This document shows, in pieces, positions 1,782 through 48,202 of a stretch of 64,000 nucleotides of DNA (position 1 is the stretch's first letter; the number at the start of each line of letters is the position of its first letter). A model generated the notes under the pieces. It did not search any database. It saw only the letters and a list, made by a program, of their open reading frames with translations, and was not told the DNA's origin. Source of the stretch: Terracidiphilus sp. (GTDB lineage: Bacteria > Acidobacteriota > Terriglobia > Terriglobales > Acidobacteriaceae); NCBI GenBank assembly GCA_049977045.1, contig JBMFHB010000002.1:47355-111354 (forward strand), in the 5' to 3' direction. Both the position numbers and the translations under genes were made by a program.

Positions 1782-1844
1782 TCACACCTTAAGCGCCGCT
1801 AAATCACGTGCGGCGCGCGCGGTAATGTTAACGAGATAAGCCAC
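1782..1844 (-). pseudogene. ParE/RelE-type toxin remnant (about 20 codons only)
   Basis: GTG-started frame overlapping the antitoxin stop reads (M)AYLVNITARAARDLAALKV then TGA. This matches the usual ParE N-terminus pattern (Y-x-V-x-I/F-T-x-x-A-x-x-DL), but the rest of the toxin is missing. Confidence 0.4.
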
Positions 1845-2133
1845 GCGCCGACTCGAACTCGCGGAAGAACTCACGTGCCGGATGCGTTCTTCCGCCTCTT
1901 GCGTCTTCCAATCCCTGACGCACGCCTTCCCTGGCATCGGCACGCGCCGCCACGTCGAGCAACCGCTGATAGGCTTCAGCATCCTGAACCACGGCCGCAG
2001 CCTTGCCGTTCAACGTAAGCACCAGGGGACGCTTGCTCTTCCTCAGTTGTCTGATCATACGCGCGGAGCCGCGACGAAACTCAGTCAACGATTGAATGTC
2101 CGTGACGATATTCAGCACGATTCCTCCCGTCAA
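1828..2133 (-). CDS. Phd/YefM family type II antitoxin (orphan)
   Basis: 101 aa; SLTEFRRGSARMIRQL...RPLVLTLNGKAAAVVQDAEAYQRL is the classic Phd/YefM fold signature. Confidence 0.75.
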   Translation of the reverse strand: MTGGIVLNIVTDIQSLTEFRRGSARMIRQLRKSKRPLVLTLNGKAAAVVQDAEAYQRLLDVAARADAREGVRQGLEDARGGRTHPAREFFREFESARGLSR

Positions 2134-2172: not shown

Positions 2173-2802
2173 TCATCCGGAAAGCTCCGAGGTGTCGATC
2201 AGGGCGACTCCCGCCTCGGCGAACCGTGCTTCCATGGCCGCCGCGGAGCCATTGAGATCGATGGCGCGGCAGGCATCGCGCAAAACCACTGCCGGAAAGT
2301 TCAATCGCCGCGCGTCGAGCGCCGAGTAGCCCACGCAGTAGTCGTAGGCAAGCCCCACCAGAAACACGCGACGGAGATTCCGCTCGCGCAGGTAGGCAGC
2401 GAGGCCGGTCGGCGTGGTGTGGTCGTTCTCAAAGAATGCGGAATAGGAATCGATCTCTGCCCGGAACCCTTTGCGCAGGATCAGTTCGGCCTGCGGCAGC
2501 TTGAGCGCGGGATGAAAATCCGCTCCAACTGTTCCCTGCACGCAATGCAGCGGCCAAAGCGTCTGCGGGCCGCAGGGAAGCTCGATGGTCTCGAACGGTT
2601 TCCGGCCTGGATGCGATGCCGCAAACGACGTGTGGCGGGCCGGGTGCCAGTCCTGCGTGAGAACAATGTGCTGAAAGCGCGGCGTAATGCGAAGGATGGG
2701 CGCGATGACCTCGTCTCCGCGCGGCACAGCCAGCGATCCGCCGGGGCAAAAGTCATTCTGCACATCGGTGACGATCAGAACATCGTTCGCATCGATTCGC
2801 AT
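2173..2802 (-). CDS. pncA: nicotinamidase/pyrazinamidase (isochorismatase family)
   Basis: LIVTDVQNDFCPGGSLAV motif. Start moved to the internal ATG at 2802 (MRIDAND...), giving a typical 209 aa length. Confidence 0.85.
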   Translation of the reverse strand: MRIDANDVLIVTDVQNDFCPGGSLAVPRGDEVIAPILRITPRFQHIVLTQDWHPARHTSFAASHPGRKPFETIELPCGPQTLWPLHCVQGTVGADFHPALKLPQAELILRKGFRAEIDSYSAFFENDHTTPTGLAAYLRERNLRRVFLVGLAYDYCVGYSALDARRLNFPAVVLRDACRAIDLNGSAAAMEARFAEAGVALIDTSELSG

Positions 2803-2864
2803 GGGATCTCCGGGCCTGGCGCCCAACGACAGATCATGGCCGCCGGCGTGCAAGACTGCTCCGA

Positions 2865-3623
2865 TTATGCCAGAAGCACTTCAATCCCATTTTTGCGTAG
2901 CATGGCAACGTATTCCGGCGCGAGTTGCGCGTCGGAGACGACAAGATGCGCGGCGGTGAGCGGAGCCACGGGAATCATGCCGCCGCGTCCGAACTTGGTG
3001 TGGTCGGTCACGATGATCACGCGGCTCGCCACCTCGATCATCTTCTGCTCCGAACCCACGACGAGCGTATTGTTGTTGCTCAATCCAGCTTCGGTAACGC
3101 CGCCAATTCCCATGATGACGGTATCGGCGCGAATGGCGCCGAGCATCTGCTCGCAGAAGGGACCGAGCATGACGCGCGAGCGCGGGTCTAGATAGCCGCC
3201 GGTCAGCGTCAATTCGATATTGCGCAAAGACTCGAGCCCCTCGGCAATGGGCAGCGAGTTGGTGACGATATGCAGCGACTTCGAGGTCAGTTCGCGCGCC
3301 ACCGCGGCCACGGTCGAGCCGCCATCGAGAATCACGGTCTGGCCGTCTTCGATGAGGCCCGCCGTGAGCTTGCCGATGCGGCCTTTCTCGTCGCTCAGGC
3401 GCACGCTCTCCACCGCGTAATCCGAGGCGTGATTCGGCGAGACCTGCACACTCACCGCGCCGCCGTAGACGCGCTTGAGCAGGCCTTCCTGTTCCAGGAT
3501 GTCGAGATCGCGGCGGACACTCGATTCCGATGCGTCGAGTTCGCGGCAAAGAGTCTCCGAGTCGATGAAGTCCCGGGTCTCAAGCATCTGGCGAATTCGC
3601 AGTTGCCGCTCTGCAGCCTTCAT
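2865..3623 (-). CDS. DeoR family transcriptional regulator (last gene of the BMC operon strand)
   Basis: N-terminal wHTH (ETLCRELDASESSVRRDLDILEQEGLLKRVYGGAV) plus DeoR C-terminal sugar-phosphate sensor domain. Confidence 0.9.
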   Translation of the reverse strand: MKAAERQLRIRQMLETRDFIDSETLCRELDASESSVRRDLDILEQEGLLKRVYGGAVSVQVSPNHASDYAVESVRLSDEKGRIGKLTAGLIEDGQTVILDGGSTVAAVARELTSKSLHIVTNSLPIAEGLESLRNIELTLTGGYLDPRSRVMLGPFCEQMLGAIRADTVIMGIGGVTEAGLSNNNTLVVGSEQKMIEVASRVIIVTDHTKFGRGGMIPVAPLTAAHLVVSDAQLAPEYVAMLRKNGIEVLLA

Positions 3624-3677: not shown

Positions 3678-4778
3678 CTATCGCATCGCTTCCATCACCG
3701 CATCCGTCACCGACTTGACCAGCGATTCAAGATCGCTGTCCGAAGCCGCGGCAGCTCTTGACGTGGGCCCGTCACAGGGCGTAGGTTCGACCGCGATCGA
3801 GCCTGGCACCTCGAGGTCGGACAACTGGCACTCCTTCATGCGCGAAGTGTCAAAACGAATATCCGGCAGGCCCAGCTTCTTTTTGATGGCCAGCAGATCG
3901 GTGCCATGCTCATCGGAGATGCGTGAGATAGGCGCGCCAAGCTGTGAGGCGATCAACAGCGTCCAGCAGTAAGTCTCCAGCACTTCGGCATACCACTCGG
4001 CGTGTGTCACCGTGTCGGCCCAGCACACAATTCCATGATTCGAGAGCAGGACGGTGTTGTGTTGCTTCACATAAGGCAGCACAGTTTCAGCGAAGGCCTT
4101 CGTGCCCGGCGTCTCGTAAGGGGAAACCGCAACCTTGCCGACAAAAACCTCGAACTCCGGAATGATGAGATTGGGCGGCACGCGGCCCGTGATGGCGTAG
4201 GCCGTGGCATGCGGCGGATGGCAGTGAACCACCGCCTTGGCTTCCGGCACCGCCTTGTAAATCTCCAGATGCAGCAGCAACTCGCTCGTCCGGGGCTTAG
4301 AGCCGGCAATCTGAACGCCGTCCATGTCTGTCATCCCGATCACCTCGGGCGTCAAATCGTATTTGCTCACCAGAGTTGGCGTGCAGAGCACTTCATTGGG
4401 TCCGATGCGGTAGGAGATGTTTCCGCCGTTGCCGTCGACGAACTGGCGCATCCAGAGCTTGCGGCCCACCGAGCAGATCTCTTTCTTGACGGCCTCGGCT
4501 TCAGGCGAGGTGAAAAGACGGCGATTGACAGCGGAAGCGGCGGGCGCGGCGGGCGCTAAAGCCGGGGTCGGCTGTGCGGCGGGCGCAGAGACCGCTGCCG
4601 CGCCTTCCACCACAAGCTCGATGCCGTGCTGCTGCAAAAAATCGCGCGCCGAAGGCGTGACGATGCTGTTGGCCGCGACCACAATGCTGCCGGCTCCCGC
4701 TGACAATGCGTCCTGCACATCGCGCATTGCAATCAGCTTGCGCCCGCCAAGATCGATGCTTTTTTCTCCGCTTTTCAC
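3678..4778 (-). CDS. class II (fuculose/rhamnulose-1-phosphate type) aldolase with extra N-terminal domain and C-terminal encapsulation-peptide-like helix
   Basis: Core carries VVHCHPPHATAYA zinc-His motifs. About 60 aa of unassigned N-terminal domain is followed by an Ala/Pro linker; the C-terminal helix is DSDLESLVKSVTDAVMEAMR. Confidence 0.85.
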   Translation of the reverse strand: MKSGEKSIDLGGRKLIAMRDVQDALSAGAGSIVVAANSIVTPSARDFLQQHGIELVVEGAAAVSAPAAQPTPALAPAAPAASAVNRRLFTSPEAEAVKKEICSVGRKLWMRQFVDGNGGNISYRIGPNEVLCTPTLVSKYDLTPEVIGMTDMDGVQIAGSKPRTSELLLHLEIYKAVPEAKAVVHCHPPHATAYAITGRVPPNLIIPEFEVFVGKVAVSPYETPGTKAFAETVLPYVKQHNTVLLSNHGIVCWADTVTHAEWYAEVLETYCWTLLIASQLGAPISRISDEHGTDLLAIKKKLGLPDIRFDTSRMKECQLSDLEVPGSIAVEPTPCDGPTSRAAAASDSDLESLVKSVTDAVMEAMR

Positions 4779-4800: not shown

Positions 4801-5088
4801 CTATTGCCCCACGTCTACCGCGTCCACAATCAGCGCCAGGTATGCATCTACCGGCACCTGTGCGGGCCAAAAAGGATTCGCGGCCTCGCGGCCTTCCGTA
4901 AACGCCACCAACTGGCCCATTGCCGCACCCAGTTCGTCGACCGCAATCAGCGCCTTGCCGCCGCCCTGCTCATTCTTCGCGCGGAGGTTTTCCATCGTCA
5001 CCGGCTCCACAATCTTGAGCGTGCGCCCCTGAAATGACGCGACGGCATGCGCGAGGGTCACTTGACCGCGGACGATGCCGAGCCTCAT
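4801..5088 (-). CDS. BMC-P pentameric vertex shell protein (EutN/CcmL family)
   Basis: 95 aa; MRLGIVRGQVTLAHAV... N-terminus is typical of Pfam03319-type proteins; start overlaps the upstream stop (ATGA). Confidence 0.9.
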   Translation of the reverse strand: MRLGIVRGQVTLAHAVASFQGRTLKIVEPVTMENLRAKNEQGGGKALIAVDELGAAMGQLVAFTEGREAANPFWPAQVPVDAYLALIVDAVDVGQ

Positions 5089-5369
5089 GCGGCGCCTCCT
5101 GCGAAGGGTTGCTGCACCGCATCCACCAGGCCCGCGACCACCAGGCGCGCCGGCGTGTTGTTGCCCAACCTCTGGCGCGAAATATCGCCGTCGGTCGAAA
5201 CCATGACTGTCTCACCCTGCGCAGCGCCCATCCAGTCCACGACGACGATCGGTTCTTCCGCCGCGGTTCCATCTGCCTCCAGCCGCTGCGCAACAAGAAA
5301 CCTGCATCCGTTCAATGAGGGATGCTTTGCCGTTGCCACGACCGTGCCTGCAATCCGCACCAGAAACAT
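5085..5369 (-). CDS. BMC-P pentameric vertex shell protein (EutN/CcmL family)
   Basis: 94 aa; MFLVRIAGTVVATAKHPSLNGCRFLVAQ... Confidence 0.9.
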   Translation of the reverse strand: MFLVRIAGTVVATAKHPSLNGCRFLVAQRLEADGTAAEEPIVVVDWMGAAQGETVMVSTDGDISRQRLGNNTPARLVVAGLVDAVQQPFAGGAA

Positions 5370-5371
5370 TG

Positions 5372-6826
5372 CTAGATAATCCTCAGTGCATTCCCGACCA
5401 CAATCTGCCGTTCGCGCGTAAAGGTGAGCGGCGTCGTGATTCCTTCGCCCGTCGGCGTGGCGATGGTGTGGCTGAAGTAGCCCGGGCCGCCCACACCCAG
5501 CGACGCCGGCGAGGCCGCGTTGTGAATGAACAACGTGGTGTTCACTGCCTTCGCCATGCGCGTCGCCGTCTCCAGATTGTTGGTGTGAATGACGGCGGTG
5601 TGCCCGTAGCCGTGTTCCGCGCGGACCGCGGCGGCAATCGCCTCATCCACGTTCTTCACCCGCACGACGGGCACGAACGGCATCATCTGTTCTTCCTGAA
5701 CAAATGCATGCTCCTCGACGGTCTCGCCGAAGAGCAGATCGGTTCCGGCAGGCGCCTGCACACCGGCTGCTTTTGCCAGCACGGCCACATCCTTGCCCAC
5801 CAGATCCTTTTTCACATGCGCGCGGGCGCAGCCGCCGCCGTCGCCTTCAAACGTAAACGCAGCCTTGGTGAGCCGGTCGATCGCCGCCGCATCCAGTTGA
5901 TAAGCTCCCGCGCGCTTCATGGCCGCGATAAACGCATCGGCTACCGATGCCACCACGAAGACTTCCTTTTCGCCGATGCACAGCAGATTGTTGTCGAAGG
6001 CCGCGCCATCGATGATGCAGCGCGCCGCGCGATCGAGATCCGCGGTTTCATCCACTACCACCGGCGGATTTCCCGGCCCGCCTGCGATGACGCGCTTGCC
6101 CGACATGGCCGCGGCCCTGGCCACCGCCGCGCCACCCGTGCAGCAGAGCAGCGCCACCTTGGGGTGATGGAAGATCTGCTCGGCAGCTTCGATCGTCGGC
6201 TCCACGGTGGTTGTGAAAACATTGGCCACGCCCAGTTCGCGCTCAATCTCGCGATTCCACAACTGCAACGCATACTGCGCCACGCGCTTGCCCGAAGGAT
6301 GCGGCCCGAAGACCGCCGTATTTCCCGCGGCAACAACATTAATGGCGTTCGAGGCCATGGTTGGCACCGAATGTGTGACCGGCAGCATCATGCCGACGAC
6401 GCCCCAGGGCGCGTGCTCGATGATGCAGACGCCAGTGGTGCTGCTGCGCGCCTCGGTGTGCAACGCCTCCACGCCAAGCACAAAGCGCATGTTCTGCAGC
6501 TTCAGAATCTTGTGGTCGAGGCGGCCGACCTTGGTCTCTTCCAGCTCCATGCGGCCCAGTTCTTCACGCCGGTCGTTGCAGATGCCACGCACGATGTCCA
6601 CAATGCGCATACGGTCTTCGAGCGGCATCGCCGCTACTTTCTTCTGCGCCTCGAATGCCGCGTTCACCGCCTCGTCCACGGTGGCAAAGATGCCATCGCG
6701 CGCAGACGATTTTGGCGCGGGAACGGGCGCTGCCGGCGCCGTCTGCATCTGCATGCGCAGCCGCGCAACCACTTCCTTTGCGATCTCTTGAATCATCTGC
6801 GGCGAAACTTGCTGTTCGGTCTGCAT
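5372..6826 (-). CDS. CoA-acylating aldehyde dehydrogenase (PduP/EutE-like) with N-terminal encapsulation peptide
   Basis: Catalytic Cys context FDNNLLCIGEKEV. N-terminal amphipathic helix PQMIQEIAKEVVARLRMQM is followed by a Pro/Ala linker. Confidence 0.9.
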   Translation of the reverse strand: MQTEQQVSPQMIQEIAKEVVARLRMQMQTAPAAPVPAPKSSARDGIFATVDEAVNAAFEAQKKVAAMPLEDRMRIVDIVRGICNDRREELGRMELEETKVGRLDHKILKLQNMRFVLGVEALHTEARSSTTGVCIIEHAPWGVVGMMLPVTHSVPTMASNAINVVAAGNTAVFGPHPSGKRVAQYALQLWNREIERELGVANVFTTTVEPTIEAAEQIFHHPKVALLCCTGGAAVARAAAMSGKRVIAGGPGNPPVVVDETADLDRAARCIIDGAAFDNNLLCIGEKEVFVVASVADAFIAAMKRAGAYQLDAAAIDRLTKAAFTFEGDGGGCARAHVKKDLVGKDVAVLAKAAGVQAPAGTDLLFGETVEEHAFVQEEQMMPFVPVVRVKNVDEAIAAAVRAEHGYGHTAVIHTNNLETATRMAKAVNTTLFIHNAASPASLGVGGPGYFSHTIATPTGEGITTPLTFTRERQIVVGNALRII

Positions 6827-6848: not shown

Positions 6849-7145
6849 CTACGGTTTCGCGACGGCCACGCCGTTCACCTCGATCATGTCCACGATGCCC
6901 ACAATCACTGCATCGACGGGCGCGTCCTTGGTTGCGGGCGTCAGGCGCGCCGAACTGCCCTGCGTAAACAGCACGCACTCACCGACGCCAGCGCCCACGC
7001 CGTCCACCGCGACAACGGAGCTGCCCGAGATCTGCAGCTTGCCTTCCTTGTTGATGTAAGGCTGAACCAGGAGCAGCTTCATGCCGCGGAACTTCGCGAT
7101 CTTCTGCGTGGAGACCACGTTGCCGATGACTTTCGCGATGAACAT
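6849..7145 (-). CDS. BMC-P pentameric vertex shell protein (EutN/CcmL family), third paralog
   Basis: 98 aa; MFIAKVIGNVVSTQKIAKFRGMKLLLVQP... Confidence 0.9.
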   Translation of the reverse strand: MFIAKVIGNVVSTQKIAKFRGMKLLLVQPYINKEGKLQISGSSVVAVDGVGAGVGECVLFTQGSSARLTPATKDAPVDAVIVGIVDMIEVNGVAVAKP

Positions 7146-7342: not shown

Positions 7343-7615
7343 CTATTTCGGCAGGACGGTGCCCAGCGAATCGTGCGGACGCGCGATCACATGCACGCTC
7401 TGCACCTCGCCGGCCGCGCGAGCCGCTGCCGCGCCCGCATCGACCGCGGCGCGCACCGAACCCACGTCGCCCGTGACATACACAGAGCAGAGGCCGCTGC
7501 CCGCCTTGTTCCAACCCATATACCTGACGCTCGCCGCCTTCAGCATGGCGTCCGTCGCCTGCACCAGAGCCACCAGGCCCTTGGTTTCGATCATCCCGAT
7601 TGCTTCACTCGCCAT
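7343..7615 (-). CDS. BMC-H hexameric shell protein (PduA/EutM-like, Pfam00936)
   Basis: [26 protein letters not shown]..., KAGSGL pore loop, RPHD C-terminal motif. Confidence 0.95.
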
Positions 7616-7637
7616 TGCGATCTCCCTCTTCTGATGC

Positions 7638-7907
7638 CTACTTCAACAAGTTCTCGACCAGCGCATCGTGGGGCCGCGGAATCACGTGCGACGACACCAG
7701 TTCGCCGACCACCTTGGCCGCGGCTGCGCCTGCATCTACCGCCGCGCGCACGCTGCCTACGTCGCCACGCACGATCACGGTGACATAGCCGCCGCCGATC
7801 GGCACCGTCTTTACCAGCTCCACGCTGGCAGCCTTCACCATGGCGTCGCTCGCTTCCACGATTCCCACCATGCCCCTGGTTTCAATCAATCCGATTGCCT
7901 GACTCAT
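7638..7907 (-). CDS. BMC-H hexameric shell protein
   Basis: [26 protein letters not shown]..., IGGGYVTV pore loop. Confidence 0.95.
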
Positions 7908-7924
7908 CGCTTCTCCTCGAAGTG

Positions 7925-8048
7925 CAGCTTCTAGCTGCCAGCTTCTAGCTTGTTCGTGCTGTGTCTACCGGGCTGTCATTTGAGCTTGCGTCCCGGAATA
8001 TCCACGAAAGCTCGTTCTCCCGCCTCCAAGCTAGCCGCTAGAAGCTGG
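7925..8048. repeat. CTAG-rich inverted clamp bracketing the BMC-H2/BMC-H3 spacer
   Basis: CAGCTTCTAGC occurs at 7925-7935 and 7939-7949. CCAGCTTCTAGC (7938-7949) is the exact reverse complement of GCTAGAAGCTGG (8037-8048). Confidence 0.7.
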
Positions 8049-8058
8049 GAGCTTGCCT

Positions 8059-8352
8059 TTACGCCTTCTTCGCCGCCGCTTTGCTCTGCTGAACGAAAGA
8101 CGGCAGCTCGTCGTGAGGCCGTGAGATCACTTGCACGCTCACCACCTCGCCGATTCTCGATGCCGCTTCCGCGCCCGCATCGGTAGCAGCTTTAACGGCC
8201 GCCACGTCGCCTTCGACGAAGGCGGTCACCAGACCCGAACCTACGGTCTGCCAGCCGGCGAACGACACGTTTGCCGATTTGAGCATGGCGTCGGTCGCTT
8301 CAAACAGCGCGACCAAACCCTTTGTCTCAACCATTCCCAGCGCTTGTTTCAT
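8059..8352 (-). CDS. BMC-H hexameric shell protein with Lys/Ala-rich C-terminal tail
   Basis: [26 protein letters not shown]..., VGSGL pore loop, tail [10 protein letters not shown]. Confidence 0.95.
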
Positions 8353-8394: not shown

Positions 8395-9084
8395 TTACTT
8401 GAAAATCTCCAATTCCCTGGTCAAATGCAGACCGCAGGCATTGGCTTCGTCCGTATCCATGTGCACGTTGAGCCGCGACGAAGGGTCGATGCGCACATGC
8501 ACGTTATTAAACGTCACGCTCGAAGGGCCGCCCACACGCAGCTTCATCCTGTCGCCCTTCTTGACACCGAAATAGGCGGCCTCCTGCGGATTCATGTGCA
8601 CGTGGATGGCGGCGCGGATCACACCCTCTTTCAGTTCCACCACACCCTTGGGCCCGACAATCACCGCGCCCGGCGTGCCCTCGATGTCGCCCGAGAGCCG
8701 CACCGGCAGGTCGTTGAAGCCCAGCATAATGGCGTCGGTAAAGGCCAGCTCCACCTGCGACTGCTTGCGCATCGGTCCCAGAATGCGCAGGTTGGAGATG
8801 ATGCGGCTGCGCGGCCCGACAATCGTCACCATTTCCCTGGCCGCGAAGTTGCCTTCCTGAAAAAGCGGACGGTCGAAGGTCAGCTCCGAGCCGGGGCCAA
8901 ACAGCACATCCATATCTTCACGGCACACATGCATGTGGCGCGACGAGGCCTGCACCACCAGCTCCGGCGCCTTGCCGTTGGGGGCCCCGGATTTCCCGCG
9001 CCCCAGATACTCGAGCGCCACCTGGCGCACAATACGTTCCACCGTCGCCCTGTCGATCACCGGATTTCCTGTGCTTGCCATCAT
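8395..9084 (-). CDS. pduL: phosphate acyltransferase PduL with N-terminal encapsulation peptide
   Basis: Two PduL repeats with metal-binding His motifs (SSRHMHVCREDMD; AAIHVHMNPQEA). N-terminal helix is DRATVERIVRQVALEYL. Confidence 0.9.
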   Translation of the reverse strand: MMASTGNPVIDRATVERIVRQVALEYLGRGKSGAPNGKAPELVVQASSRHMHVCREDMDVLFGPGSELTFDRPLFQEGNFAAREMVTIVGPRSRIISNLRILGPMRKQSQVELAFTDAIMLGFNDLPVRLSGDIEGTPGAVIVGPKGVVELKEGVIRAAIHVHMNPQEAAYFGVKKGDRMKLRVGGPSSVTFNNVHVRIDPSSRLNVHMDTDEANACGLHLTRELEIFK

Positions 9085-9132: not shown

Positions 9133-9166
9133 CTATCCCCTCAGTCCCTTAGTCCCTTAGTCCCTG
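9133..9166 (-). repeat. tandem octamer (plus-strand AGTCCCTT, about 3 copies) giving TAA/TGA/TAG in three frames at the ackA stop
   Basis: Minus-strand stops read from plus-strand TTA 9149-9151 (native ackA stop), TCA 9141-9143 and CTA 9133-9135. The 8-nt spacing puts them in all three frames. Confidence 0.75.
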
Positions 9167-10330
9167 CCTTTTCACCACTGCCACCGTCTCCCGCGCCACA
9201 ATCGACTCCTCGTTGGCGGGGATGACGAGAACTTTTACCTTGGAGTGCGGCGTCGAAATCTCACCTTCGCCGCCGATCCTCTGGTTGGCCATCTCGTCGA
9301 GATCCATGCCGAAGGCCGCTGTCCCTTTGAGCACTCCAGCGCGAATCGCAGCGCTGTTTTCGCCAATCCCGCCCGAAAACGTGATCACGTCCAGGCCGCC
9401 CAGTTCCAGCATGAACGCGCCCAGGTAGTGCCGGATGGCGTGGACAAAAACATCGAGCGCGAGCTGCGCCCGGGCGCTTCCCCTGGCCGCTGCCTCTTCG
9501 AGGTCGCGCAGATCGCCACTGGCGCCGCTGATCCCAGCCAGGCCCGACTGGCTGCCGAGCAATTTGGCCATCGCATCCGGCCCCATGCCGAGCTTTTTCA
9601 TCATGTGCAGCACGGCGAATACATCGATATCGCCCACACGGTTGTTCTGCGGCAGGCCCGACTGCGGCGAGGCACCCATGCTTACGTCCACCGCAACGCC
9701 GTTGCGAAAGGCGGCTACACTCGAACTGCCACCCAGATGGCAGGAGATGTGGCGCAAATCCTTGCGCGAGAGAAACGCCTGCGTGCGTTCGCTGGCCGAG
9801 CGGTGACTGGCGCCGTGAAATCCATAACGCCGGATTCCATGCTCCGTTCGCCACTCGTAGGGAACGGCATAGGTCGTCGACGCTTCGTCCATGAACCGGT
9901 AGGGAAACGGCTCCATCACCGCGACCAGCGGCACGCCCGGCAACTCCTGCCGGAAACCCTTCATGGCGGCGATATACGGCGGATTGTGCGCCGGAGCCAG
10001 GAAGATAAACTCCTCCATGGCGGCAAGAAACCTGTCATCGACGATCTGCGGTGTATTGAGTGGCCCCGCGTGCACAGCCTTGAAGCCAACAGCCGCAATT
10101 TCGCCAAGGCTCTTGAGCGGCTTGCCCGCTCCGGCAATCTCACTGAGACATTTTCTGATCGCGGCGGGGTAATCGGCGCACTCGCCGCCCGGCTGGCCGA
10201 TGCGCTCCACGCGGCCCTGCGCCAGCACGGTTTCTCCCGGAGCCGACGCACCCGAAGCGTCGATTTCCGAGAGTTCAAGTAACCGGTACTTGAACGAGGT
10301 GCTGCCGATATTGGGGATCAAGACCTTCAT
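9149..10330 (-). CDS. ackA: acetate/propionate kinase
   Basis: MKVLIPNIGSTSFKYRL N-terminal ASKHA motif; full-length 393 aa; no obvious encapsulation peptide. Confidence 0.9.
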   Translation of the reverse strand: MKVLIPNIGSTSFKYRLLELSEIDASGASAPGETVLAQGRVERIGQPGGECADYPAAIRKCLSEIAGAGKPLKSLGEIAAVGFKAVHAGPLNTPQIVDDRFLAAMEEFIFLAPAHNPPYIAAMKGFRQELPGVPLVAVMEPFPYRFMDEASTTYAVPYEWRTEHGIRRYGFHGASHRSASERTQAFLSRKDLRHISCHLGGSSSVAAFRNGVAVDVSMGASPQSGLPQNNRVGDIDVFAVLHMMKKLGMGPDAMAKLLGSQSGLAGISGASGDLRDLEEAAARGSARAQLALDVFVHAIRHYLGAFMLELGGLDVITFSGGIGENSAAIRAGVLKGTAAFGMDLDEMANQRIGGEGEISTPHSKVKVLVIPANEESIVARETVAVVKRQGLRD

Positions 10331-10424
10331 TTTTGACTGTTCTTGATTGAAAATGAATGATACGATAATTTAGTCGCCAGAGTCAATCACTAAATTTGGC
10401 GGTTTTTGAGGGATAATCCGAGGT
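10331..10424. promoter_or_regulatory. AT-rich divergent control region between the ackA-led BMC operon and the pduS/pduT-like pair
   Basis: Marked GC drop. TTGACT (10333-10338), TTGATT (10343-10348), GATAAT (10364-10369 and 10412-10417). Inverted AATTTAG/CTAAATT and TGATTG/CAATCA pairs could be DeoR operators. Confidence 0.35.
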
Positions 10425-11768
10425 ATGACTCCACAAACGAGCATTACCGGACCAACTTCTGCCAGGCTTACCTCCTCGCTCGACCGCATCGAGGAGCTGG
10501 GGATTATCGGCGCCGGCGGCGGCGGCTTTCCCACGGCAGTCAAGTTCAAGGCCCAGGCGCCTCTATTGATTGCCAACGCCGCCGAGTGCGAACCACTGCT
10601 GCACAAAGACAAGGAACTGCTCCACCACCATGCCGAGCCATTCCTGCGCGGCATGACGATGGCGATGCAACTGGTAGGCGCACGTGAGGGCGTCATCGGC
10701 ATCAAGGAAAAGTATTTGGAGATCATTGCCGCGCTCGAGGCGAAGGTTCCAGAGAACATTCGCGTTGCGCCGCTGCCCGACTGCTACCCAGCCGGCGACG
10801 AGTTCATCCTGGTGCACATGGTCACGGGTCGAGTGATACCGCCTGGCGGCCTGCCGAAAGACGTCGGCGCAACCGTCTCCAACGTGGAAACGCTAATGAA
10901 CATCGGCCTGGACCGGCCGGTGACGCACAAGTATCTAACCGTCGCGGGCGCGGTTGCCCATCCCGTGACGCTGCGCGTACCCGTAGGCATCACGATCGGC
11001 GAAGTGATTGAGGCCGCGGGCGGCGCGACCGTTCCCGACTTCGGCGTCCTTCTGGGCGGCGTGATGATGGCCCGGCCCGCCGCCAATCTCGACGTACCTG
11101 TCACGAAGACCACGGGCGGCATCATCGTGTTGCCCGCCGAGCACGCGCTCATCCGCCGGCACAATGCGCCGTGGATGCACATCGCCAGGATTGGCCGGTC
11201 GGCATGCGATCAATGCCGCTTCTGTACCGAGTTCTGCCCGCGCTATCTGCTCGGCCATCCCATCGAGCCGCACATGGCGATGCGCTCGCTGGGTTTCTCC
11301 GAGCCGGGGGATCTTACTGTAGCCACGCTCTATTGCTGCGAGTGCAACCTGTGCACCATGTTCGCGTGCCCCGAGGATCTGGACCCGAAGAACGTTTGCG
11401 TGCAGGGCAAGCCGATTGCGCGCGAGCGCGGACTGACGTGGAAAGGCACACCGGATTCGATCCAGCCGCATCCGATGGCGGAGTTCCGCCGCGTGCCCAT
11501 GCGCCGGCTTATCGCCAAACTCGGTCTGGGCGAGTTTGTGAACGAAGGGCCGCTTACCGAATACAATTTTGCTCCGCGCAAGGTGACGATTCCGCTCAAG
11601 CAACATGCTGGCGCGCCCGCAGCTGCAGTGGTAAAGTGCGGCGACCGCGTGCGCGTGGGCGATCTGCTGGCCGCGCCCGAGCCGGGGCAGCTCGGCGCGC
11701 GCATTCACTCGAGCATTGACGGCCACGTCACGGTGGGCAAGGATGCCGTGGTGATTGAAGCAGTTTGA
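10425..11768 (+). CDS. PduS-like Fe-S flavoprotein (RnfC/NuoF-type nucleotide-binding domain, SLBB, two 4Fe-4S motifs)
   Basis: GIIGAGGGGFPTAVKF glycine-rich motif; CDQCRFCTEFCP and CCECNLCTMFACP cluster motifs. C-terminal IPLKQHAGAP...VGDLL...HSSIDGHV resembles the RnfC N-terminal barrel. Confidence 0.85.
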   Translation: MTPQTSITGPTSARLTSSLDRIEELGIIGAGGGGFPTAVKFKAQAPLLIANAAECEPLLHKDKELLHHHAEPFLRGMTMAMQLVGAREGVIGIKEKYLEIIAALEAKVPENIRVAPLPDCYPAGDEFILVHMVTGRVIPPGGLPKDVGATVSNVETLMNIGLDRPVTHKYLTVAGAVAHPVTLRVPVGITIGEVIEAAGGATVPDFGVLLGGVMMARPAANLDVPVTKTTGGIIVLPAEHALIRRHNAPWMHIARIGRSACDQCRFCTEFCPRYLLGHPIEPHMAMRSLGFSEPGDLTVATLYCCECNLCTMFACPEDLDPKNVCVQGKPIARERGLTWKGTPDSIQPHPMAEFRRVPMRRLIAKLGLGEFVNEGPLTEYNFAPRKVTIPLKQHAGAPAAAVVKCGDRVRVGDLLAAPEPGQLGARIHSSIDGHVTVGKDAVVIEAV

Positions 11769-11780
11769 AGAGATTGCCAC

Positions 11781-11807
11781 TGTTCACTGACCACTGACCA
11801 CTGTTGA
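11781..11807 (+). repeat. heptad repeat (CCACTGA) placing TGA in three frames after the pduS-like stop
   Basis: TGA at 11788, 11795 and 11805 fall in three different frames. The block sits between the stop at 11766 and the GGAG RBS of the next gene. Confidence 0.75.
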
Positions 11808-11820
11808 AAAGGAGCCAAAC

Positions 11821-12384
11821 GTGGCGACAGAAATTAACTCCATTGGACTGATCGAGCTTTCGAGCGTAGCAACCGGATTCGTCGTCGAGGACCAGATGCT
11901 GAAGGCGGGATCTGTGCAACTGCTGCTGGCGCGCAGCATCTGCTCGGGCAAGTTCCTGATCGTGGTTTCGGGCGACGTCACCAGCGTGCAATCGGCGCTC
12001 CTCGCCGGGGCTGCCGCCGCCGGAGCCTCATTGATTGAGCGCCGCCAGATTGCGCGCGTGCATCCGCAGGTGCTGCAGGCCATTTCGCAGAGCGTAGACA
12101 TTCCGCCAAGCCAGCTAAAGTCGATCGGCGTGATTGAAACTTTTTCGGCGGCCAGCATCATTGAAGTGGCAGACACCGCCGTCAAATCCGCAGCCGTCAC
12201 GTTGATGAAGGTTCATCTGGCCATGGCGCTGGGCGGCAAGGGCTTCGTGGTCATGGCCGGCGACGTGGCCAGCGTGCAGGCCGCCGTCGCTGCTGGCTCA
12301 AAGGCGGCAGCCGACGACGGCATGTTGGTGGGCAGAGGCGTGATTGCAGCTCCGTCGCCGGAGTTGTTCAAGGAATATATCTAA
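11821..12384 (+). CDS. BMC-T tandem-domain shell protein, PduT-like (candidate 4Fe-4S pore)
   Basis: 187 aa made of two BMC domains. ARSICSGKFLIVVSGDV matches the PduT KTICPGKFLL segment that carries the cluster-ligating Cys (recalled from memory, not aligned). Confidence 0.85.
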   Translation: MATEINSIGLIELSSVATGFVVEDQMLKAGSVQLLLARSICSGKFLIVVSGDVTSVQSALLAGAAAAGASLIERRQIARVHPQVLQAISQSVDIPPSQLKSIGVIETFSAASIIEVADTAVKSAAVTLMKVHLAMALGGKGFVVMAGDVASVQAAVAAGSKAAADDGMLVGRGVIAAPSPELFKEYI

Positions 12385-12493: not shown

Positions 12494-14941
<2,448 letters not shown>

Positions 14942-17125: not shown

Positions 17126-17407
17126 ATGGCGTACACCGTCCATCAGGCGAAGACAAACTTCTCGCGGATTCTCAAAGAGGTTGAGGCGGGCGAAGAGGTG
17201 ATCGTGATGCGCGGAAAAAAGCCGGTGGCGAAGGTCGTGCCGATTGCCGCTCCGGCATTCTCGCGGAGTGCGCTCGCCGGTTCGTATCGCGGAAAGTTGC
17301 GTTGGACGGAGGACGCCTTTGATCCCCTCACCGATGCGGAGCTTCGTGAAATGGGCATGGACTATCTGGCCGACGCCCCGTTGGAGCCACCGAACGAAAA
17401 ACGATGA
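17126..17407 (+). CDS. Phd/YefM-type antitoxin paired with VapC
   Basis: MAYTVHQAKTNFSRILKEVEAGEEVIVMRGKKPVAKVVPI; 4-nt ATGA overlap with the toxin gene. Confidence 0.85.
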   Translation: MAYTVHQAKTNFSRILKEVEAGEEVIVMRGKKPVAKVVPIAAPAFSRSALAGSYRGKLRWTEDAFDPLTDAELREMGMDYLADAPLEPPNEKR

Positions 17408-17790
17408 ACTTTCTGCTCGACACTCACACGTTCATCTGGTTCCTTCAGGAACCGGAGCGGTTGCCGCGTGAGGTTCACGCAGTTGTCGTAGGCTCCGATC
17501 AGCCATTGGCATTGTCCATTGCGACGCCATGGGAGATGGCGATCAAAGCCGGCGCGGGAAAGCTGAAGACCCCGGAGATTCTCGATAATTTCGAACTCCT
17601 CGCAAGAAAATGCGGTTGCATCATTCTGCCGTTAACAGTAAGACATGTCATTGCTTCAGGACTACTGCCGTTACACCACAAGGATCCCTTCGACCGGTTG
17701 CTGATTGCGCAGGCGCTCGATCTCAACCTGCCGATTCTCAGTTGCGACGAGATCTTCGATCGGTACGACGTCAAGCGGATCTGGAATTAA
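17404..17790 (+). CDS. vapC: PIN-domain ribonuclease toxin VapC
   Basis: LLDTHTFIW at the N-terminus and a conserved acidic residue in HKDPFDRLLIAQA. Confidence 0.9.
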   Translation: MNFLLDTHTFIWFLQEPERLPREVHAVVVGSDQPLALSIATPWEMAIKAGAGKLKTPEILDNFELLARKCGCIILPLTVRHVIASGLLPLHHKDPFDRLLIAQALDLNLPILSCDEIFDRYDVKRIWN

Positions 17791-19629: not shown

Positions 19630-21708
19630 TTATCGCTGCGCGGGCTCGGTAGGTGGCGGCAAGGCGCTATCCGCGCCGTCGAGACGCCGAATGTGCACGC
19701 TGGCCTCAGTTTCGGGAACCGTACCATTGTTGGCCTGAACTTCAGTGGGACGGCCCTGGATAAGAATGTGCTGCGCGATCGAGCCGCGCGCGGGAACGAG
19801 GATGCGCTGGGTCACCGAAGTGTCGGCGTTGCGCACGATGACAGGAATTTCGGCAGTTGCGTAGCCGGAGTTGGAGAGGCTTACGGTAACGAGCCATCCG
19901 TTGGCGATGGCAGTCTCGTCATCAGTATTAGTCGAGCTCGATGTGTGCGCGGGCCGCTCCACGGAGGTAAAAAAGACGTTATTGATGGCGATGTCGGGAA
20001 GTCCTTTGTCGGCGTCGATCCAATCGGCGAAGAACCACGATAAATCGCGGCGCAGACCGGCCTGTTCGAGGAGCTTTTCGAACGATCCCGATCCCGACGC
20101 GGGCCCAAGACCACGCGCTGCGTCCTGCGCGGGATCGTAGGCTCGCAGCGCGGCGGAGAGCGCGGCATCGCCGACCAGATCGCGCAGCATCCAGAAGACA
20201 TAAGCGGCTTTGGTGCGGTAGTAGATGGGCGAGATGGCCTGGGCGAGCGGCTGGCCGGCGCTCTCGCCGGGGCTGGAAGGCTCGATCAGCGCCAGCGCGG
20301 CGCGGCCCGATGCCAGCGATTCGAGCGCCTTTTCGCGGCCCAACTGTTTTTCAAGCCATAACGTTCCCATGAAGTGCGCGACACCTTCGCTCAACCAGGC
20401 GCGAGGCGACGACATCCACGCGTGGGTCAGCGCATGAGCCATGGCTCCCGTGAGGCGATCGCTCGGAAGCTGCCTGATGGGAATGACCAGCAGCGCGCCG
20501 GTTTCGAAGGGCGCGTCCTGGGGATCTGGAGGATCGAGAACCGTGAGCTGCGAACGCGGCGCATGGCCAAGCCAGCCGGCGAGGAAGGGCGTGACCGTGG
20601 AAATCGCAGAGGACCATGCGGGAACGGCTGCGTCGTCGGCCGGCAACGTCCAGAGAGTGGTGTTGGTGGCGTGGCTCTGGTTGCGCACGGCGACGAAGAG
20701 GCTGGGGGCCTCAAAGCCGAGCGTCGCGCTCTCCAGCGTGGCCGTGGCGATGCCGGGGATCTCGCCGCCTCCGTTCTGGGGCTCGGTGATGGCGAGCGGT
20801 ACGGAATGTCCGTTGATGAGAGCGACTGTGGGCTTGTGATCGTGAGGAAACTCGACGGTGAGGTGCAGGAAGAAATGCGCGCCGGCCATGCGCAGCTTGT
20901 GCTCGCCCATCTCGTCGAAGACGCGCGAACCATCGCCAAGAATCACCGGGACGGAGGAGGCAGGATACCAGACCACATTGCCGAAGCCGCGCAGGCCGGT
21001 AAAGTCGGTATCGATCTCGTCCCAGTCGGAGTGCAGAGCCATGTCTTCGGGAGTTCCAAGAGCGATGAGCCGTTGCGCCGACTGCAGAATCGTGCCGGAA
21101 TACGTGACATCGAGTTGCATCGAAGCGCCGGGCGCGAGCGGCGTGGAGAGCTTGACAGCGGCCTCATGAAGCTGGCCAGTGTGGTCTGTGTCGGAGTTGA
21201 GCGTGGCGACGGTATAGAGAGCGTCCCGGCCAGCAACGCGGATGCGCTCCCAGCGGAGCGACGAAGAGAGCTGGAGCGGGATGTACGCGAGCGGCCCTTT
21301 GCCGTCGTTGCGCACGGTAATGAGGGCGCGGACGGCAATCTCGTGCGTGGCGGGGCGGAGATGCACATCCATATTGAATTCCGTGAAGGTGACAGCCTCG
21401 CGCTCTGCGTCGCTGGCGGTCGGCGCCTGGACAGCTTCGCCGCCGGGGTTCTTCACTTGCACGCCGGGACCGACGGTGGTCGTGGTCACGCCGTTCTTGT
21501 CGGTTGAGCGCGAGAAGATGACCTGGCCGTGATGAGGCTGCTCCTGCGAAGCCGCAGGCGTGCTTTGCGCTGCTCCGGGAAGCGCGACGAAGAGCAAAAC
21601 GCTCGCGAGAATGAGATGGATTGTGCGCGAGAACTCCCAGCTTTTCGCAAGGAACGCGAAAGGTTGGGGCACGGGGCTGGTTGCAACATCGAAAGATTGA
21701 TTTCTCAT
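19630..21708 (-). CDS. exported gluzincin (MA clan) peptidase-like protein with HALTH in place of HExxH
   Basis: Signal-like N-terminus. MAHALTHAWMSSPRAWLSEGVAHF resembles the HExxH...E zinc site, but the Glu codon is GCG (Ala; motif at nt 20386-20436). Confidence 0.6.
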   Translation of the reverse strand: MRNQSFDVATSPVPQPFAFLAKSWEFSRTIHLILASVLLFVALPGAAQSTPAASQEQPHHGQVIFSRSTDKNGVTTTTVGPGVQVKNPGGEAVQAPTASDAEREAVTFTEFNMDVHLRPATHEIAVRALITVRNDGKGPLAYIPLQLSSSLRWERIRVAGRDALYTVATLNSDTDHTGQLHEAAVKLSTPLAPGASMQLDVTYSGTILQSAQRLIALGTPEDMALHSDWDEIDTDFTGLRGFGNVVWYPASSVPVILGDGSRVFDEMGEHKLRMAGAHFFLHLTVEFPHDHKPTVALINGHSVPLAITEPQNGGGEIPGIATATLESATLGFEAPSLFVAVRNQSHATNTTLWTLPADDAAVPAWSSAISTVTPFLAGWLGHAPRSQLTVLDPPDPQDAPFETGALLVIPIRQLPSDRLTGAMAHALTHAWMSSPRAWLSEGVAHFMGTLWLEKQLGREKALESLASGRAALALIEPSSPGESAGQPLAQAISPIYYRTKAAYVFWMLRDLVGDAALSAALRAYDPAQDAARGLGPASGSGSFEKLLEQAGLRRDLSWFFADWIDADKGLPDIAINNVFFTSVERPAHTSSSTNTDDETAIANGWLVTVSLSNSGYATAEIPVIVRNADTSVTQRILVPARGSIAQHILIQGRPTEVQANNGTVPETEASVHIRRLDGADSALPPPTEPAQR

Positions 21709-23133: not shown

Positions 23134-23388
23134 GCCCTTTTCTATGGTATCACTATTGGAACCATCTATCGAGCACAGATCTCCCGCGCCCCACTTTGAA
23201 CGACACGAAGTGCGCCGGATTGCAGCGCCCATCTATTTCGATAAACGAATTGCCCGCTGCACAAAGCGGCCACCGAATCGGCTTCGGCCAGTGACCGAGC
23301 GGCTAGCTGCCTACACTGTGCGAGAGGAGAAGAAGACCGTAAGATCGGTCAGCTCCCGAAGATCGCCATTCGCGAGAGGATGGTTGAA

Positions 23389-24306
23389 CTACGCGTCGCC
23401 GTGGTGTTTCGAGTCAACCTGGAGGGTGAGCTTCTGTTGTTTCTTATCGCGCAGAATCGTCACCTGCACGGGCTTGTCCCGATTGGAGCGCAGGGCGCGA
23501 GCCCAGTCAGCCGAGGTCGCCATGGAGTCGGCGCCCACCTTGAGAATCACGTCGAAGGCCCGCAGTCCGGCGGCGGCGGCCTCGCTCTTTTGGGCAACCT
23601 GCTTCACCATCAGGCCACTCTTGACACCCAGGTACTCGGCCATCTGCGAGGTGAGCGGCTCAACCAGAGCGCCTACGTCGAGCGTACTCGCAAAGAAAGG
23701 GACGTGAAATCTGCTCGATGGAACAGCGGTGTTGTCGCCGCTCATCATGTCCATCGCCGGAGTCGAGCCCGCGGAACCGCCCAGCCGCGACGGCACGATG
23801 CTCTCGACATCCGCGCCAATCTTCGACCAGATGCTCTTTTCCATGGCTCTGCGGTCGGCCAGTTGCACTTCCATTGTTTGCACGCTGCCATCGCGGCTGA
23901 TCTCGAGATTGATCTTGCGGCCCGGAGGAATCTGCCGCAACATGCGGCGCAACTGCTCGGCGTCGCCCACGCTCTGGCCGTCAATAGCCAGCACCACATC
24001 ATTCACCTTGAGTCCGGCCTGGCCGGCGGGCGCATCGTGATCGATCAGAGTAATGAGAGCGCCGTGCGGTTCCTTCAATTTGAGCGACTGCGCCTTGCCG
24101 GCGTCGATGTCGGTGACATCGACGCCCAGATAACCGGCCGGGCTGGCATGTGCGATGACGGGATGGGAATTCGCAAGGAGAGGCGTGAGCGACTGCGCCT
24201 GGGAATGCGCCGTGCGTGGCGCCAGGAGGAGGCAGATTGCCGAAACCAGCGAGGCGCAACCAAGGAAAGAATTGAACGTGCGGTAAGGCCTCAAAAAGTA
24301 CCTCAT
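23389..24306 (-). CDS. exported protein with two PDZ domains and no protease domain
   Basis: Signal peptide plus two HtrA-like PDZ units (GYLGVDVTDID...GLKVNDVVLAIDG; MAEYLGVKSGLMVKQV...GLRAFDVILKVG). Confidence 0.8.
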   Translation of the reverse strand: MRYFLRPYRTFNSFLGCASLVSAICLLLAPRTAHSQAQSLTPLLANSHPVIAHASPAGYLGVDVTDIDAGKAQSLKLKEPHGALITLIDHDAPAGQAGLKVNDVVLAIDGQSVGDAEQLRRMLRQIPPGRKINLEISRDGSVQTMEVQLADRRAMEKSIWSKIGADVESIVPSRLGGSAGSTPAMDMMSGDNTAVPSSRFHVPFFASTLDVGALVEPLTSQMAEYLGVKSGLMVKQVAQKSEAAAAGLRAFDVILKVGADSMATSADWARALRSNRDKPVQVTILRDKKQQKLTLQVDSKHHGDA

Positions 24307-24381
24307 CGGTATCTCCCGTCGCAGTTGATCGTCCGGTCTGCGCTCATCGAGACGGCGCAGTGGCCGGAAAGGTTAGCAAGC

Positions 24382-25365
24382 CTACTGAATCTCCGGCACC
24401 CGGCTCAAAACCTGCCGGGAAACATTTCTGATCCGCGGGTTGTCGTCGGAGTTGGAGACGGAGTAAAGCACCTGGCGAACGCTCATATCGGCATCGACCG
24501 GCTCCAACAGACCAATGGCAGCCGTGCGGATCGACGGATCATTGTCGTTCAGTACAGCTTCAAGCACCGCATCGCGCACGCGGATGTCGTCAGCTACGTA
24601 AGGCTCCAGGCCTTCGAGCGCCTTTTGGCGCACCTTGGCGCTGTGGTCGTAGCGCAACGCCACCATAAGCGCCTCGCGGACGCCGGTCGACTTGCAACTG
24701 CGGTCTGCGCGGCACTCGGCCGCGAGCAGGGCCACGGAGTCCCCGCGCACGCCCGCCGGGGCATTCTGCGCGGCCAGCATGAGCAGTTGACGGATCTGCG
24801 GATCGTCGAGCGATCCCTCCACATGGCGCGGCACAATCTGGTTGTAGCTCACATCCACAAGGTCGCTGTTGGGCTCCCGTGCAATGCCGGAGATGCTGGC
24901 CACATTGGCCAGTGCGGGCAGCGCGGCCGCAGGCTGCGTCTTGAAGGCCGCGGGAGCTGCAATCTGCGCAGCCGCCGCGTGGGCCGCGCGGTTTAGCGCG
25001 TATTCGTACCCGCCGAGAACCCCGGCTCCCGCGCCTGCCACCAATAAAAGCAGCGCCGCAACCGGCGCGGCCTGCAGGCTCGAGAAGTTGCCCAGGATGC
25101 GCTCGCCGAGGCGCTCATACCAGCGCTTGGGCGGCAGCGCATCGAGCGATTCGTCCAGGCGCAGGCGCGCGCGAGCAACAAGATTCGGTCCCGGCTCCAC
25201 AACAGGATAGGCGCCGGCAAGCGTCTTGAGCGCCAGCACATGCTCGCGCTCCTTCCGGCACTCCGCGCAGGCAGCCACGTGCCGCTCCAGTTCGTGGGTC
25301 AGTTCGTCGGACAACTCTCCGTAAGCAGAGGTTACAATCCGTTCGTGTGCAAGTTGGCAATTCAT
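24382..25365 (-). CDS. anti-sigma factor (zf-HC2) with one TM helix and extracytoplasmic HEAT-like repeats
   Basis: MNCQLAHERI...HVAACAECRKE zinc-finger anti-sigma motif; TM VAALLLLVAGAGAGVLGG; repetitive helical C-terminus. Start set to ATG 25365 (GAGGA upstream). Confidence 0.8.
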   Translation of the reverse strand: MNCQLAHERIVTSAYGELSDELTHELERHVAACAECRKEREHVLALKTLAGAYPVVEPGPNLVARARLRLDESLDALPPKRWYERLGERILGNFSSLQAAPVAALLLLVAGAGAGVLGGYEYALNRAAHAAAAQIAAPAAFKTQPAAALPALANVASISGIAREPNSDLVDVSYNQIVPRHVEGSLDDPQIRQLLMLAAQNAPAGVRGDSVALLAAECRADRSCKSTGVREALMVALRYDHSAKVRQKALEGLEPYVADDIRVRDAVLEAVLNDNDPSIRTAAIGLLEPVDADMSVRQVLYSVSNSDDNPRIRNVSRQVLSRVPEIQ

Positions 25366-35881: not shown

Positions 35882-35928
35882 GTGTATGCTCGATTGTCTC
35901 AAACCAGCCTGACCCAAAGAGGGTTTCC

Positions 35929-46665: not shown

Positions 46666-46682
46666 TCAGTGGTCAGTGGTCA
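46666..46682 (-). repeat. heptad repeat (CCACTGA x3, minus strand) starting at the native stop of the upstream gene
   Basis: Plus-strand TCA at 46680-46682 (native stop), 46673-46675 and 46666-46668 gives three minus-strand TGA in three frames. Confidence 0.8.
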
Positions 46683-48035: not shown

Positions 48036-48202
48036 CGAAGAGTATTTTCGCCGATGTGGGCTTGACGGCGAAAGCCTGCCTGTTTCTGGTGAACTGGATC
48101 GAGCGCGCAAAGCTGCGAACCACCCACTGATCGCGTGAAGAAAAGGCGCTTCGCCCCGGCCGCGCGAACCCTGCACGGGTATTGTGCGACATTAATGAAA
48201 GG

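Follow-up and report, generated by a model that had tools for sequence, protein, structure and literature searches.

A probable PduS/PduT-type cofactor-recycling module beside the aldolase-type metabolosome operon of Terracidiphilus and related Acidobacteriaceae

Two genes of the PduS/PduT type in a microcompartment locus

The 64-kb stretch of DNA considered here, which we refer to as the window, comes from a metagenome-assembled genome (MAG) of a Terracidiphilus sp., a peat-soil acidobacterium of the family Acidobacteriaceae, and contains a complete bacterial microcompartment (BMC) locus between the nicotinamidase gene pncA (2173-2853, minus strand) and katG (from 12494, minus strand). Two plus-strand genes of this locus, with a gap of 52 bp between them, encode a PduS-type flavo-iron-sulfur protein and, immediately adjacent to it, a PduT-type shell protein, and the present report concerns the probable role of this pair in the recycling of NAD+. 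We use for the two proteins the names given by Sutter et al. (PNAS 2024, 'Electrochemical cofactor recycling of bacterial microcompartments', PMC11626177), who renamed PduS as the metabolosome NADH dehydrogenase, MNdh, and its co-occurring PduT homologue as BMC-T^SE. The coordinates of both genes, of their motifs and of the other genes of the locus are listed in Table 1; the matches on which these features are based lie far above chance, with E-values of 1e-38 to 1e-120.

Table 1. Features of the metabolosome locus (positions are those of the window; residue numbers are those of the encoded proteins)
Feature	Position	Strand	Basis or remark
MNdh (PduS-type metabolosome NADH dehydrogenase)	10425..11768	+	447 aa; Pfam domains, identity to PduS, motif conservation
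Glycine-rich FMN/NADH loop of MNdh, G29-A-G-G-G-G-F-P-T37	10509..10535	+	inside Complex1_51K
First [4Fe-4S] motif of MNdh, C261-x2-C264-x2-C267-x3-C271-P (CDQCRFCTEFCP, residues 261-272)	11205..11240	+	
Second [4Fe-4S] motif of MNdh, C304(C305)-x-C307-x2-C310-x4-C315-P (CCECNLCTMFACP, residues 304-316)	11334..11372	+	
BMC-T^SE (PduT-type tandem-domain shell trimer protein)	11821..12384	+	187 aa; two PF00936 domains
Pore loop of BMC-T^SE, I40-C41-S-G-K-F-L46	11938..11958	+	C41 is the predicted [4Fe-4S] ligand, by alignment to PduT C38
Spacer separating ackA from the MNdh gene, putative divergent promoter region	10331..10424	.	AT-rich, 94 bp; facing sigma-70-like sites; putative function
Acetate kinase, first gene of the divergent BMC operon	9149..10330	-	PF00871, 4.9e-93
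PduL-type phosphotransacylase	8395..9084	-	PF06130, 1.8e-66
Three BMC-H shell genes (8059-8352, 7638-7907, 7343-7615)	7343..8352	-	PF00936 each
BMC-P vertex protein 1	6849..7145	-	PF03319
CoA-acylating aldehyde dehydrogenase (AldDH), predicted source of lumenal NADH	5372..6826	-	NF011927, 551 bits, above cutoff
BMC-P vertex proteins 2 and 3 (5085-5369, 4801-5088)	4801..5369	-	CcmL/EutN models; PF03319 in the orthologues of locus L001
Class II aldolase, signature enzyme	3678..4778	-	PF00596, 2e-44
DeoR-family regulator	2865..3623	-	NCBIfam DeoR/GlpR models; PF08220 and PF00455 in the orthologue of locus L001

The domains that Pfam recognizes in the first protein are arranged in the order that defines MNdh, namely Complex1_51K (residues 22-160), SLBB (171-215), a 4Fe-4S dicluster domain (Fer4_17, 260-320) and RnfC_N (383-436). 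Its best match in the PDB is RnfC, from which PduS-type proteins are distinguished by a circular permutation (PMC11626177); the RnfC_N barrel of the present protein is C-terminal, and a phmmer comparison with RnfC (7zc6) returns two stretches whose order is swapped. Pairwise alignment with Salmonella PduS (whose annotated gene was located by tblastn of plasmid records) is collinear, with 45% identity over 420 aa and an E-value of 1e-120. An earlier reading of the window, made without database searches and referred to below as the sequence-only reading, had pointed to a PduS-like protein carrying the motif GAGGGGFPT and two 4Fe-4S motifs, and these are indeed found at residues 29-37, 261-272 and 304-316. 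The glycine loop is invariant in our alignment A2, and the first [4Fe-4S] motif aligns with the cluster cysteines of RnfC as well as with CEQCRLCTDLCP of PduS. The second, CxxCxxCx4CP, has the x4 spacing seen in Salmonella PduS (CSECNVCESVACP) where RnfC has x3, and since the Salmonella protein shares it, this spacing appears to be a trait of the PduS family. An additional cysteine adjoins the second motif (C304/C305). Judged by identity, domain order and motifs, the gene encodes a genuine homologue of PduS. Its present annotation is only '4Fe-4S dicluster domain-containing protein'.

The second gene starts with GTG, seven nucleotides downstream of the ribosome-binding site AAGGAG, and its product matches TIGR02526 (eut_PduT) at 115 bits and is collinear with PduT at 42% identity. 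The segment ARSICSGKFL, which the sequence-only reading had matched with the part of PduT that carries the pore cysteine, occupies residues 37-46. It contains the sole cysteine of the protein, C41 (codon at nt 11941-11943), and this residue aligns without gaps with C38 of PduT (3pac; 3n79 is the C38S mutant) and with a cysteine of 3nwg. In PduT, C38 ligates a [4Fe-4S] cluster in the pore (PMC11626177). We modelled both proteins with AlphaFold2 (AF2) as single chains. The model of the shell protein has a mean predicted local distance difference test score (pLDDT) of 94.5, from an alignment of 60 sequences, and places C41 in the turn of a beta-hairpin between strands 32-41 and 44-51. Foldseek superimposes it on 3nwg, 3n79 and 3pac with template modelling (TM) scores of 0.89-0.91 and root-mean-square deviations of 1.5-2.0 A. 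The comparison with PduT structures proposed in the sequence-only reading therefore puts C41 at the position of C38, and from homology to the PduT crystal structures we infer that C41 faces the trimer pore. On these alignments the shell protein is genuinely homologous to PduT and has the single-layer BMC-T^S fold, with its pore cysteine in place; its current annotation reads only 'BMC domain-containing protein'.

Conservation of the pair and of its neighbourhood

When a single genome of each GTDB species was scanned, 527 stretches encoding relatives were obtained, and the counts of related loci given here come from the best 80 of these. All 80 are annotated as Acidobacteriota, almost all of them as Acidobacteriaceae or Terracidiphilus; the complete Telmatobacter bradus DSM 23630 genome (NZ_CP184532.1) is among them. 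The proteins closest to the two encoded here belong to Terracidiphilus and to other Acidobacteriaceae MAGs (a protein identical to MNdh at 100% of positions, P0121, is labelled as coming from a MAG of Terracidiphilus sp.), and the closest proteins and loci together are all of Acidobacteriaceae, Terracidiphilus or Telmatobacter origin. The glycine loop and both cysteine motifs, with their eight cluster cysteines, are kept in 78/78 related MNdh open reading frames (ORFs). The pore segment is equally constant: I-C-S-G-K-[FY]-L is present in 65/65 full-length BMC-T ORFs of these relatives, and C-S-G-K in 119/120 close homologues.

The association of the two genes with each other and with the rest of the locus is also conserved. 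Wherever enough downstream sequence is available (74 loci), the gene next after that for MNdh encodes a BMC-T (74/74, with gaps of 18-568 bp), and all ten core genes of the operon that diverges from the pair are found in 54 of the 60 loci whose upstream sequence reaches far enough. In five of the remaining six, one match is split or partial, and the sixth (L043) has no match for two of the BMC-P genes and a partial AldDH. Gene content and gene order of the locus are otherwise the same in the related genomes, and the recurrence that the sequence-only reading had suggested looking for in other genomes is borne out, including the lack of a homologue of the alcohol dehydrogenase-like genes discussed below within 10 kb. 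The 94-bp spacer from which the pair and the operon diverge is conserved across related Acidobacteriaceae species as well. Within it, two sigma-70-like sites with TTGACT boxes face each other (starts at 10333 on the plus strand and 10386 on the minus strand), an arrangement which suggests that overlapping divergent promoters could co-regulate the MNdh/BMC-T pair and the main operon. A scan for terminators around the pair found no more sites than in shuffled controls.

The divergent operon and the type of metabolosome

The minus-strand operon is transcribed in the order acetate kinase, PduL, three BMC-H, BMC-P, AldDH, two BMC-P, aldolase and DeoR-family regulator. This is the gene content of the PVM type of fucose/rhamnose locus (class II aldolase, AldDH, PduL, acetate kinase, DeoR, a BMC-P triplet and BMC-H), although the taxonomic range of that type is Planctomycetes and Verrucomicrobia and the closest relatives of the present locus are Acidobacteriaceae. 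By its gene content the locus is an aldolase-type (PVM-type) metabolosome, a designation that here covers PVM and PVM-like loci alike. The ACI type of metabolosome was considered and rejected: ACI loci belong to subdivisions 4 and 6, have their AldDH on a satellite locus and include a hydroxyacid dehydrogenase, whereas here the AldDH is in place and the gene content is that of PVM.

The N-terminus of the AldDH is amphipathic (hydrophobic moment 1.86), and the C-terminus of the aldolase strongly so (hydrophobic moment 2.03; peptide LVKSVTDAVMEAMR, residues 353-366). Both look like what is expected of encapsulation peptides. The aldolase also has an N-terminal extension of ~95 aa with an Ala/Pro-rich linker, in which the Pfam scan detected nothing significant. 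Going by the family matches of the aldolase, which are below the equivalog cutoffs, the substrate may be L-fucose or L-rhamnose, metabolized via lactaldehyde; the locus showed no isomerase or kinase genes for either sugar.

Alcohol dehydrogenase and B12-dependent enzymes

The sequence-only reading had drawn attention to the lack of an alcohol or lactaldehyde reductase gene between pncA and katG. All ORFs of this interval were scanned (the gaps left between them are no longer than ~200 bp), and they include no alcohol dehydrogenase (ADH) or lactaldehyde reductase, no lactate/malate dehydrogenase and no B12-dependent enzyme. For the remainder of the window most ORFs were scanned, and the negative results on ADH and B12 hold within the limits of this single 64-kb stretch of one MAG.

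These results bear on two alternative views of the pair. One of them supposes that the main recycler of NAD+ is a dehydrogenase of the alcohol, lactaldehyde or lactate type that is encoded elsewhere and targeted to the compartment, and that MNdh/BMC-T^SE is an auxiliary, condition-dependent device, as PduS might be beside PduQ in the Salmonella Pdu system. There are precedents for such a division of labor, since 1,725 BMC loci carry both systems (PMC11626177) and Axen et al. (2014) predicted that a lactate/malate dehydrogenase-family gene substitutes for ADH in the PVM loci of Planctomycetes. The part of the genome that is visible here amounts to 64 kb, and it does contain a medium-chain Zn-ADH of the alcohol/polyol kind (41649-42716, minus strand) side by side with an aldo/keto reductase (42843-43880, minus strand), the sole ADH-like genes found in the window, ~30 kb from the locus. 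Both are generic matches in which the recognized domain takes up essentially all of the protein and an amphipathic extension is present at neither end, and in the 80 related genomes no homologue of either lies within 10 kb of the locus, so that they were rejected as candidates for hidden BMC enzymes. Nor did clustering of the remaining flanking ORFs within 10 kb in the 80 genomes reveal a widely conserved extra neighbour; ten recurrent neighbour families that were compared with Pfam (a helicase, a gamma-glutamyl transpeptidase, transporters and domains of unknown function among them) are unrelated to the locus and include none with an ADH domain. With no ADH or Ldh/Mdh-family gene in the locus and with the MNdh/BMC-T^SE module fixed beside the operon throughout this lineage, we regard a dehydrogenase encoded elsewhere as an unlikely principal recycler of NAD+.

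The other view follows the classical annotation of PduS, by which the protein would be a cobalamin reductase serving a B12-dependent enzyme. The 45% identity to the Salmonella 'cobalamin reductase PduS' speaks for it, as does the fact that one homologue (P0202) is annotated as a cobalamin reductase. A client enzyme for such an activity is what the locus lacks: as the sequence-only reading had remarked, no B12-dependent enzyme is visible, and the scanned ORFs of the locus and of the window yielded neither such an enzyme nor a B12-binding domain or an adenosyltransferase. The signature enzyme of the locus is instead a metal-dependent class II aldolase. Moreover, NADH oxidation by the homologous system proceeds without cobalamin, and the connection of these proteins to B12 has been argued to be indirect (PMC11626177). 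A cobalamin reductase is thus a very improbable identity for the present protein.

A proposed path for electrons out of the compartment

We consider it probable that the pair recycles the cofactor of an aldolase-type (PVM-type) metabolosome of an Acidobacteriaceae bacterium, as a module of the MNdh/BMC-T^SE (PduS/PduT) type. The gene identities, the motifs, the structural equivalence of C41 with PduT C38, the lack of ADH and B12 genes in the locus and the conserved synteny are observations of the present analysis, and to these the published homologous system adds a model for cofactor binding, lumenal location, direction of electron flow and acceptor that would, by analogy, apply here. In such a scheme the class II aldolase would cleave a deoxy-sugar phosphate (by analogy fuculose-1-phosphate or rhamnulose-1-phosphate) to dihydroxyacetone phosphate and lactaldehyde. 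The AldDH would convert the aldehyde to an acyl-CoA with reduction of NAD+ to NADH, and PduL together with acetate kinase would recover the CoA and make ATP. MNdh would dock on the BMC-T^SE trimer from the lumenal side and oxidize the NADH at its flavin mononucleotide (FMN). The electrons would then travel by way of the two [4Fe-4S] clusters of MNdh to a third, which the C41 residues of the three subunits would hold at the pore of the trimer, and from there to a cytosolic acceptor such as ferredoxin, flavodoxin or O2. The predicted outcome is that NAD+ would be regenerated without an ADH and that no substrate would have to be diverted to alcohol, a fate that would otherwise befall half of the aldehyde.

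This is in substance the route that the sequence-only reading had put forward, from the NADH of the AldDH through the flavoprotein and out by the iron-sulfur pore, and it fits both the sequence evidence collected above and the published MNdh/BMC-T^SE model, in which MNdh oxidizes lumenal NADH and electrons exit via the pore cluster of BMC-T^SE (PMC11626177). What finds no support is the novelty implied when that reading spoke of a different cofactor-recycling scheme for this class of BMC. Electron transport across the shell by PduS/PduT in B12-free loci had been raised by Axen et al. in 2014, and the scheme was published in 2024 with PVM named among the types that have it (PMC11626177). As far as sequence analysis can tell, the sequence-only reading was correct in substance, its mechanism already in print, and the differences in the present locus are modest refinements.

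The experimental basis of the published model is the pair from Clostridium botulinum. Its purified complex contains FMN and iron-sulfur and oxidizes NADH with O2 as acceptor at a kcat of 20 per second; by electron paramagnetic resonance (EPR) the BMC-T cluster is reduced by NADH, and voltammetry resolves five redox waves, results which together support transfer from FMN to Fe-S to the pore cluster (PMC11626177).

Some considerations weigh against extending this model to Terracidiphilus. The published biochemistry was done with the GRM1 pair of C. botulinum, whereas the present pair is known from its genes, and the cytosolic electron acceptors named above are candidates. An ADH or lactaldehyde reductase encoded outside the 64 kb covered here could share the recycling of NAD+ or take it over. 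The AF2 model of MNdh, for which the alignment was shallow (24 sequences, with identities of 75% or more), has a mean pLDDT of 65.9, and its iron-sulfur domain (residues 248-362) falls below 50 and is unusable for cluster geometry; RnfC and NuoF are the nearest folds of this poor model, with TM scores of ~0.49. Finally, the pore motif of the present BMC-T is C-S-G-K and not the CP(G/S)K that Sutter et al. call universally conserved in BMC-T proteins next to MNdh (PMC11626177), with Cys, Gly and Lys retained. Among 135 diverse BMC-T representatives at 50% identity CPGK is dominant, with CSGK, CAGK and CTGK in the minority, and the 'universal' motif evidently tolerates Ser (and also Ala or Thr) after the cysteine.

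The direction of electron flow is open to another interpretation, in which the pore cluster and the flavoprotein carry electrons inward, or serve as a redox or oxygen sensor or scavenger, and do not regenerate NAD+. O2 is an acceptor in vitro and a role in oxygen removal has been discussed (PMC11626177), and in the window katG adjoins the pair. The measured potentials, on the other hand, favour transfer from FMN to Fe-S (PMC11626177), and an outward sink for electrons would be needed because the only lumenal redox step predicted from the locus, that of the AldDH, makes NADH. As for katG, it adjoins the BMC-T gene in only ~7/80 related loci; its adjacency is for this reason taken to be incidental, and we rejected it as a partner that might deal with reactive oxygen species from O2 reduction. 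An inward or sensory function seems to us extremely improbable.

Relation to known systems

MNdh occurs in 2,172 of more than 7,000 BMC loci and has a BMC-T gene adjacent to it in 97% of cases, and 361 BMC loci have the PduS/T pair without an ADH (PMC11626177). The module of the window shares with these systems the four-domain MNdh with its C-terminal RnfC_N, the adjacent tandem BMC-T with a pore cysteine, the AldDH and the lack of ADH and B12 enzymes, in addition to belonging by gene content to a type that is listed there. It differs in its host, Acidobacteriaceae as opposed to Planctomycetes and Verrucomicrobia, and in its location: Sutter et al. count PVM as one of the non-B12 types and report 20 occurrences there, of which 18 are in satellite loci (PMC11626177), whereas here the module is a fixed part of the main locus, from whose operon it is separated by a putative promoter region common to both. 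The PVM locus reported for Planctomycetes has a gene of the lactate/malate dehydrogenase family, which is absent here, where MNdh/BMC-T^SE is built in.

Two further comparisons define the position of the pair. The 1,2-propanediol (Pdu) locus of Salmonella enterica has the same pduS-pduT gene order, with the identities, collinearity, iron-sulfur spacing and pore cysteine equivalence described above, yet it includes a B12-dependent diol dehydratase and the ADH PduQ, and its PduT has three cysteines where the present BMC-T has the pore cysteine only. RnfC and the NuoF subunit of complex I have homologous FMN/NADH-binding, SLBB and dicluster ferredoxin domains. The barrel-sandwich domain of RnfC is N-terminal and its partners belong to a membrane complex, whereas in MNdh that domain is C-terminal and the partner belongs to the shell. 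The genes near MNdh include no Rnf or Nuo partners.

Other genes of the window

Several further features were recorded in passing. The katG ORF (12494-14896, minus strand) extends ~60 codons upstream of what is likely its true start (MSNGTKCPF..., at ~14710), its orthologues being ~730 aa long. Two small plus-strand ORFs that overlap by 4 nt, 17126-17407 (MAYTVHQAKTNFSRILKEVEAGEEV...) and 17404-17790 (MNFLLDTHTFIWFL...), resemble a toxin-antitoxin pair, and a similar antitoxin-like ORF is present at 1828-2133 (minus strand). Two large adjoining genes at 32295-36097 (minus strand) encode metallopeptidase-like proteins of the PmbA/TldD family, of 575 and 692 aa. Three ORFs of 692, 538 and 498 aa (19630-21708, minus strand; 23380-24996, plus strand; 46680-48176, minus strand) have a coding-like G+C content at third codon positions (GC3) and no Pfam match at E <= 0.001.

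Significance for the Acidobacteriaceae

The analysis reveals no new principle of cofactor recycling. Its value is that of a clean natural example, in which the module lies in the main locus with no ADH nearby throughout a whole abundant lineage of peat-soil bacteria, and the annotation of both genes can now be improved. More tentatively, and with somewhat more doubt than confidence, one might go further and suggest that MNdh/BMC-T^SE is the sole and obligate recycler of NAD+ in the aldolase-type metabolosome of peat-soil Acidobacteriaceae (Terracidiphilus and Telmatobacter), hard-wired to the main operon through the shared divergent promoter and endowed with a lineage-specific C-S-G-K that could tune the pore cluster. 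Such an 'alcohol-free' variant would convert all of the aldehyde to acyl-CoA and ATP and pass its electrons to cytosolic or respiratory acceptors. Telmatobacter bradus DSM 23630, a culture-collection strain, would be a good test bed for MNdh/BMC-T^SE as the only recycler of NAD+ and for the identity of the cytosolic electron acceptor.

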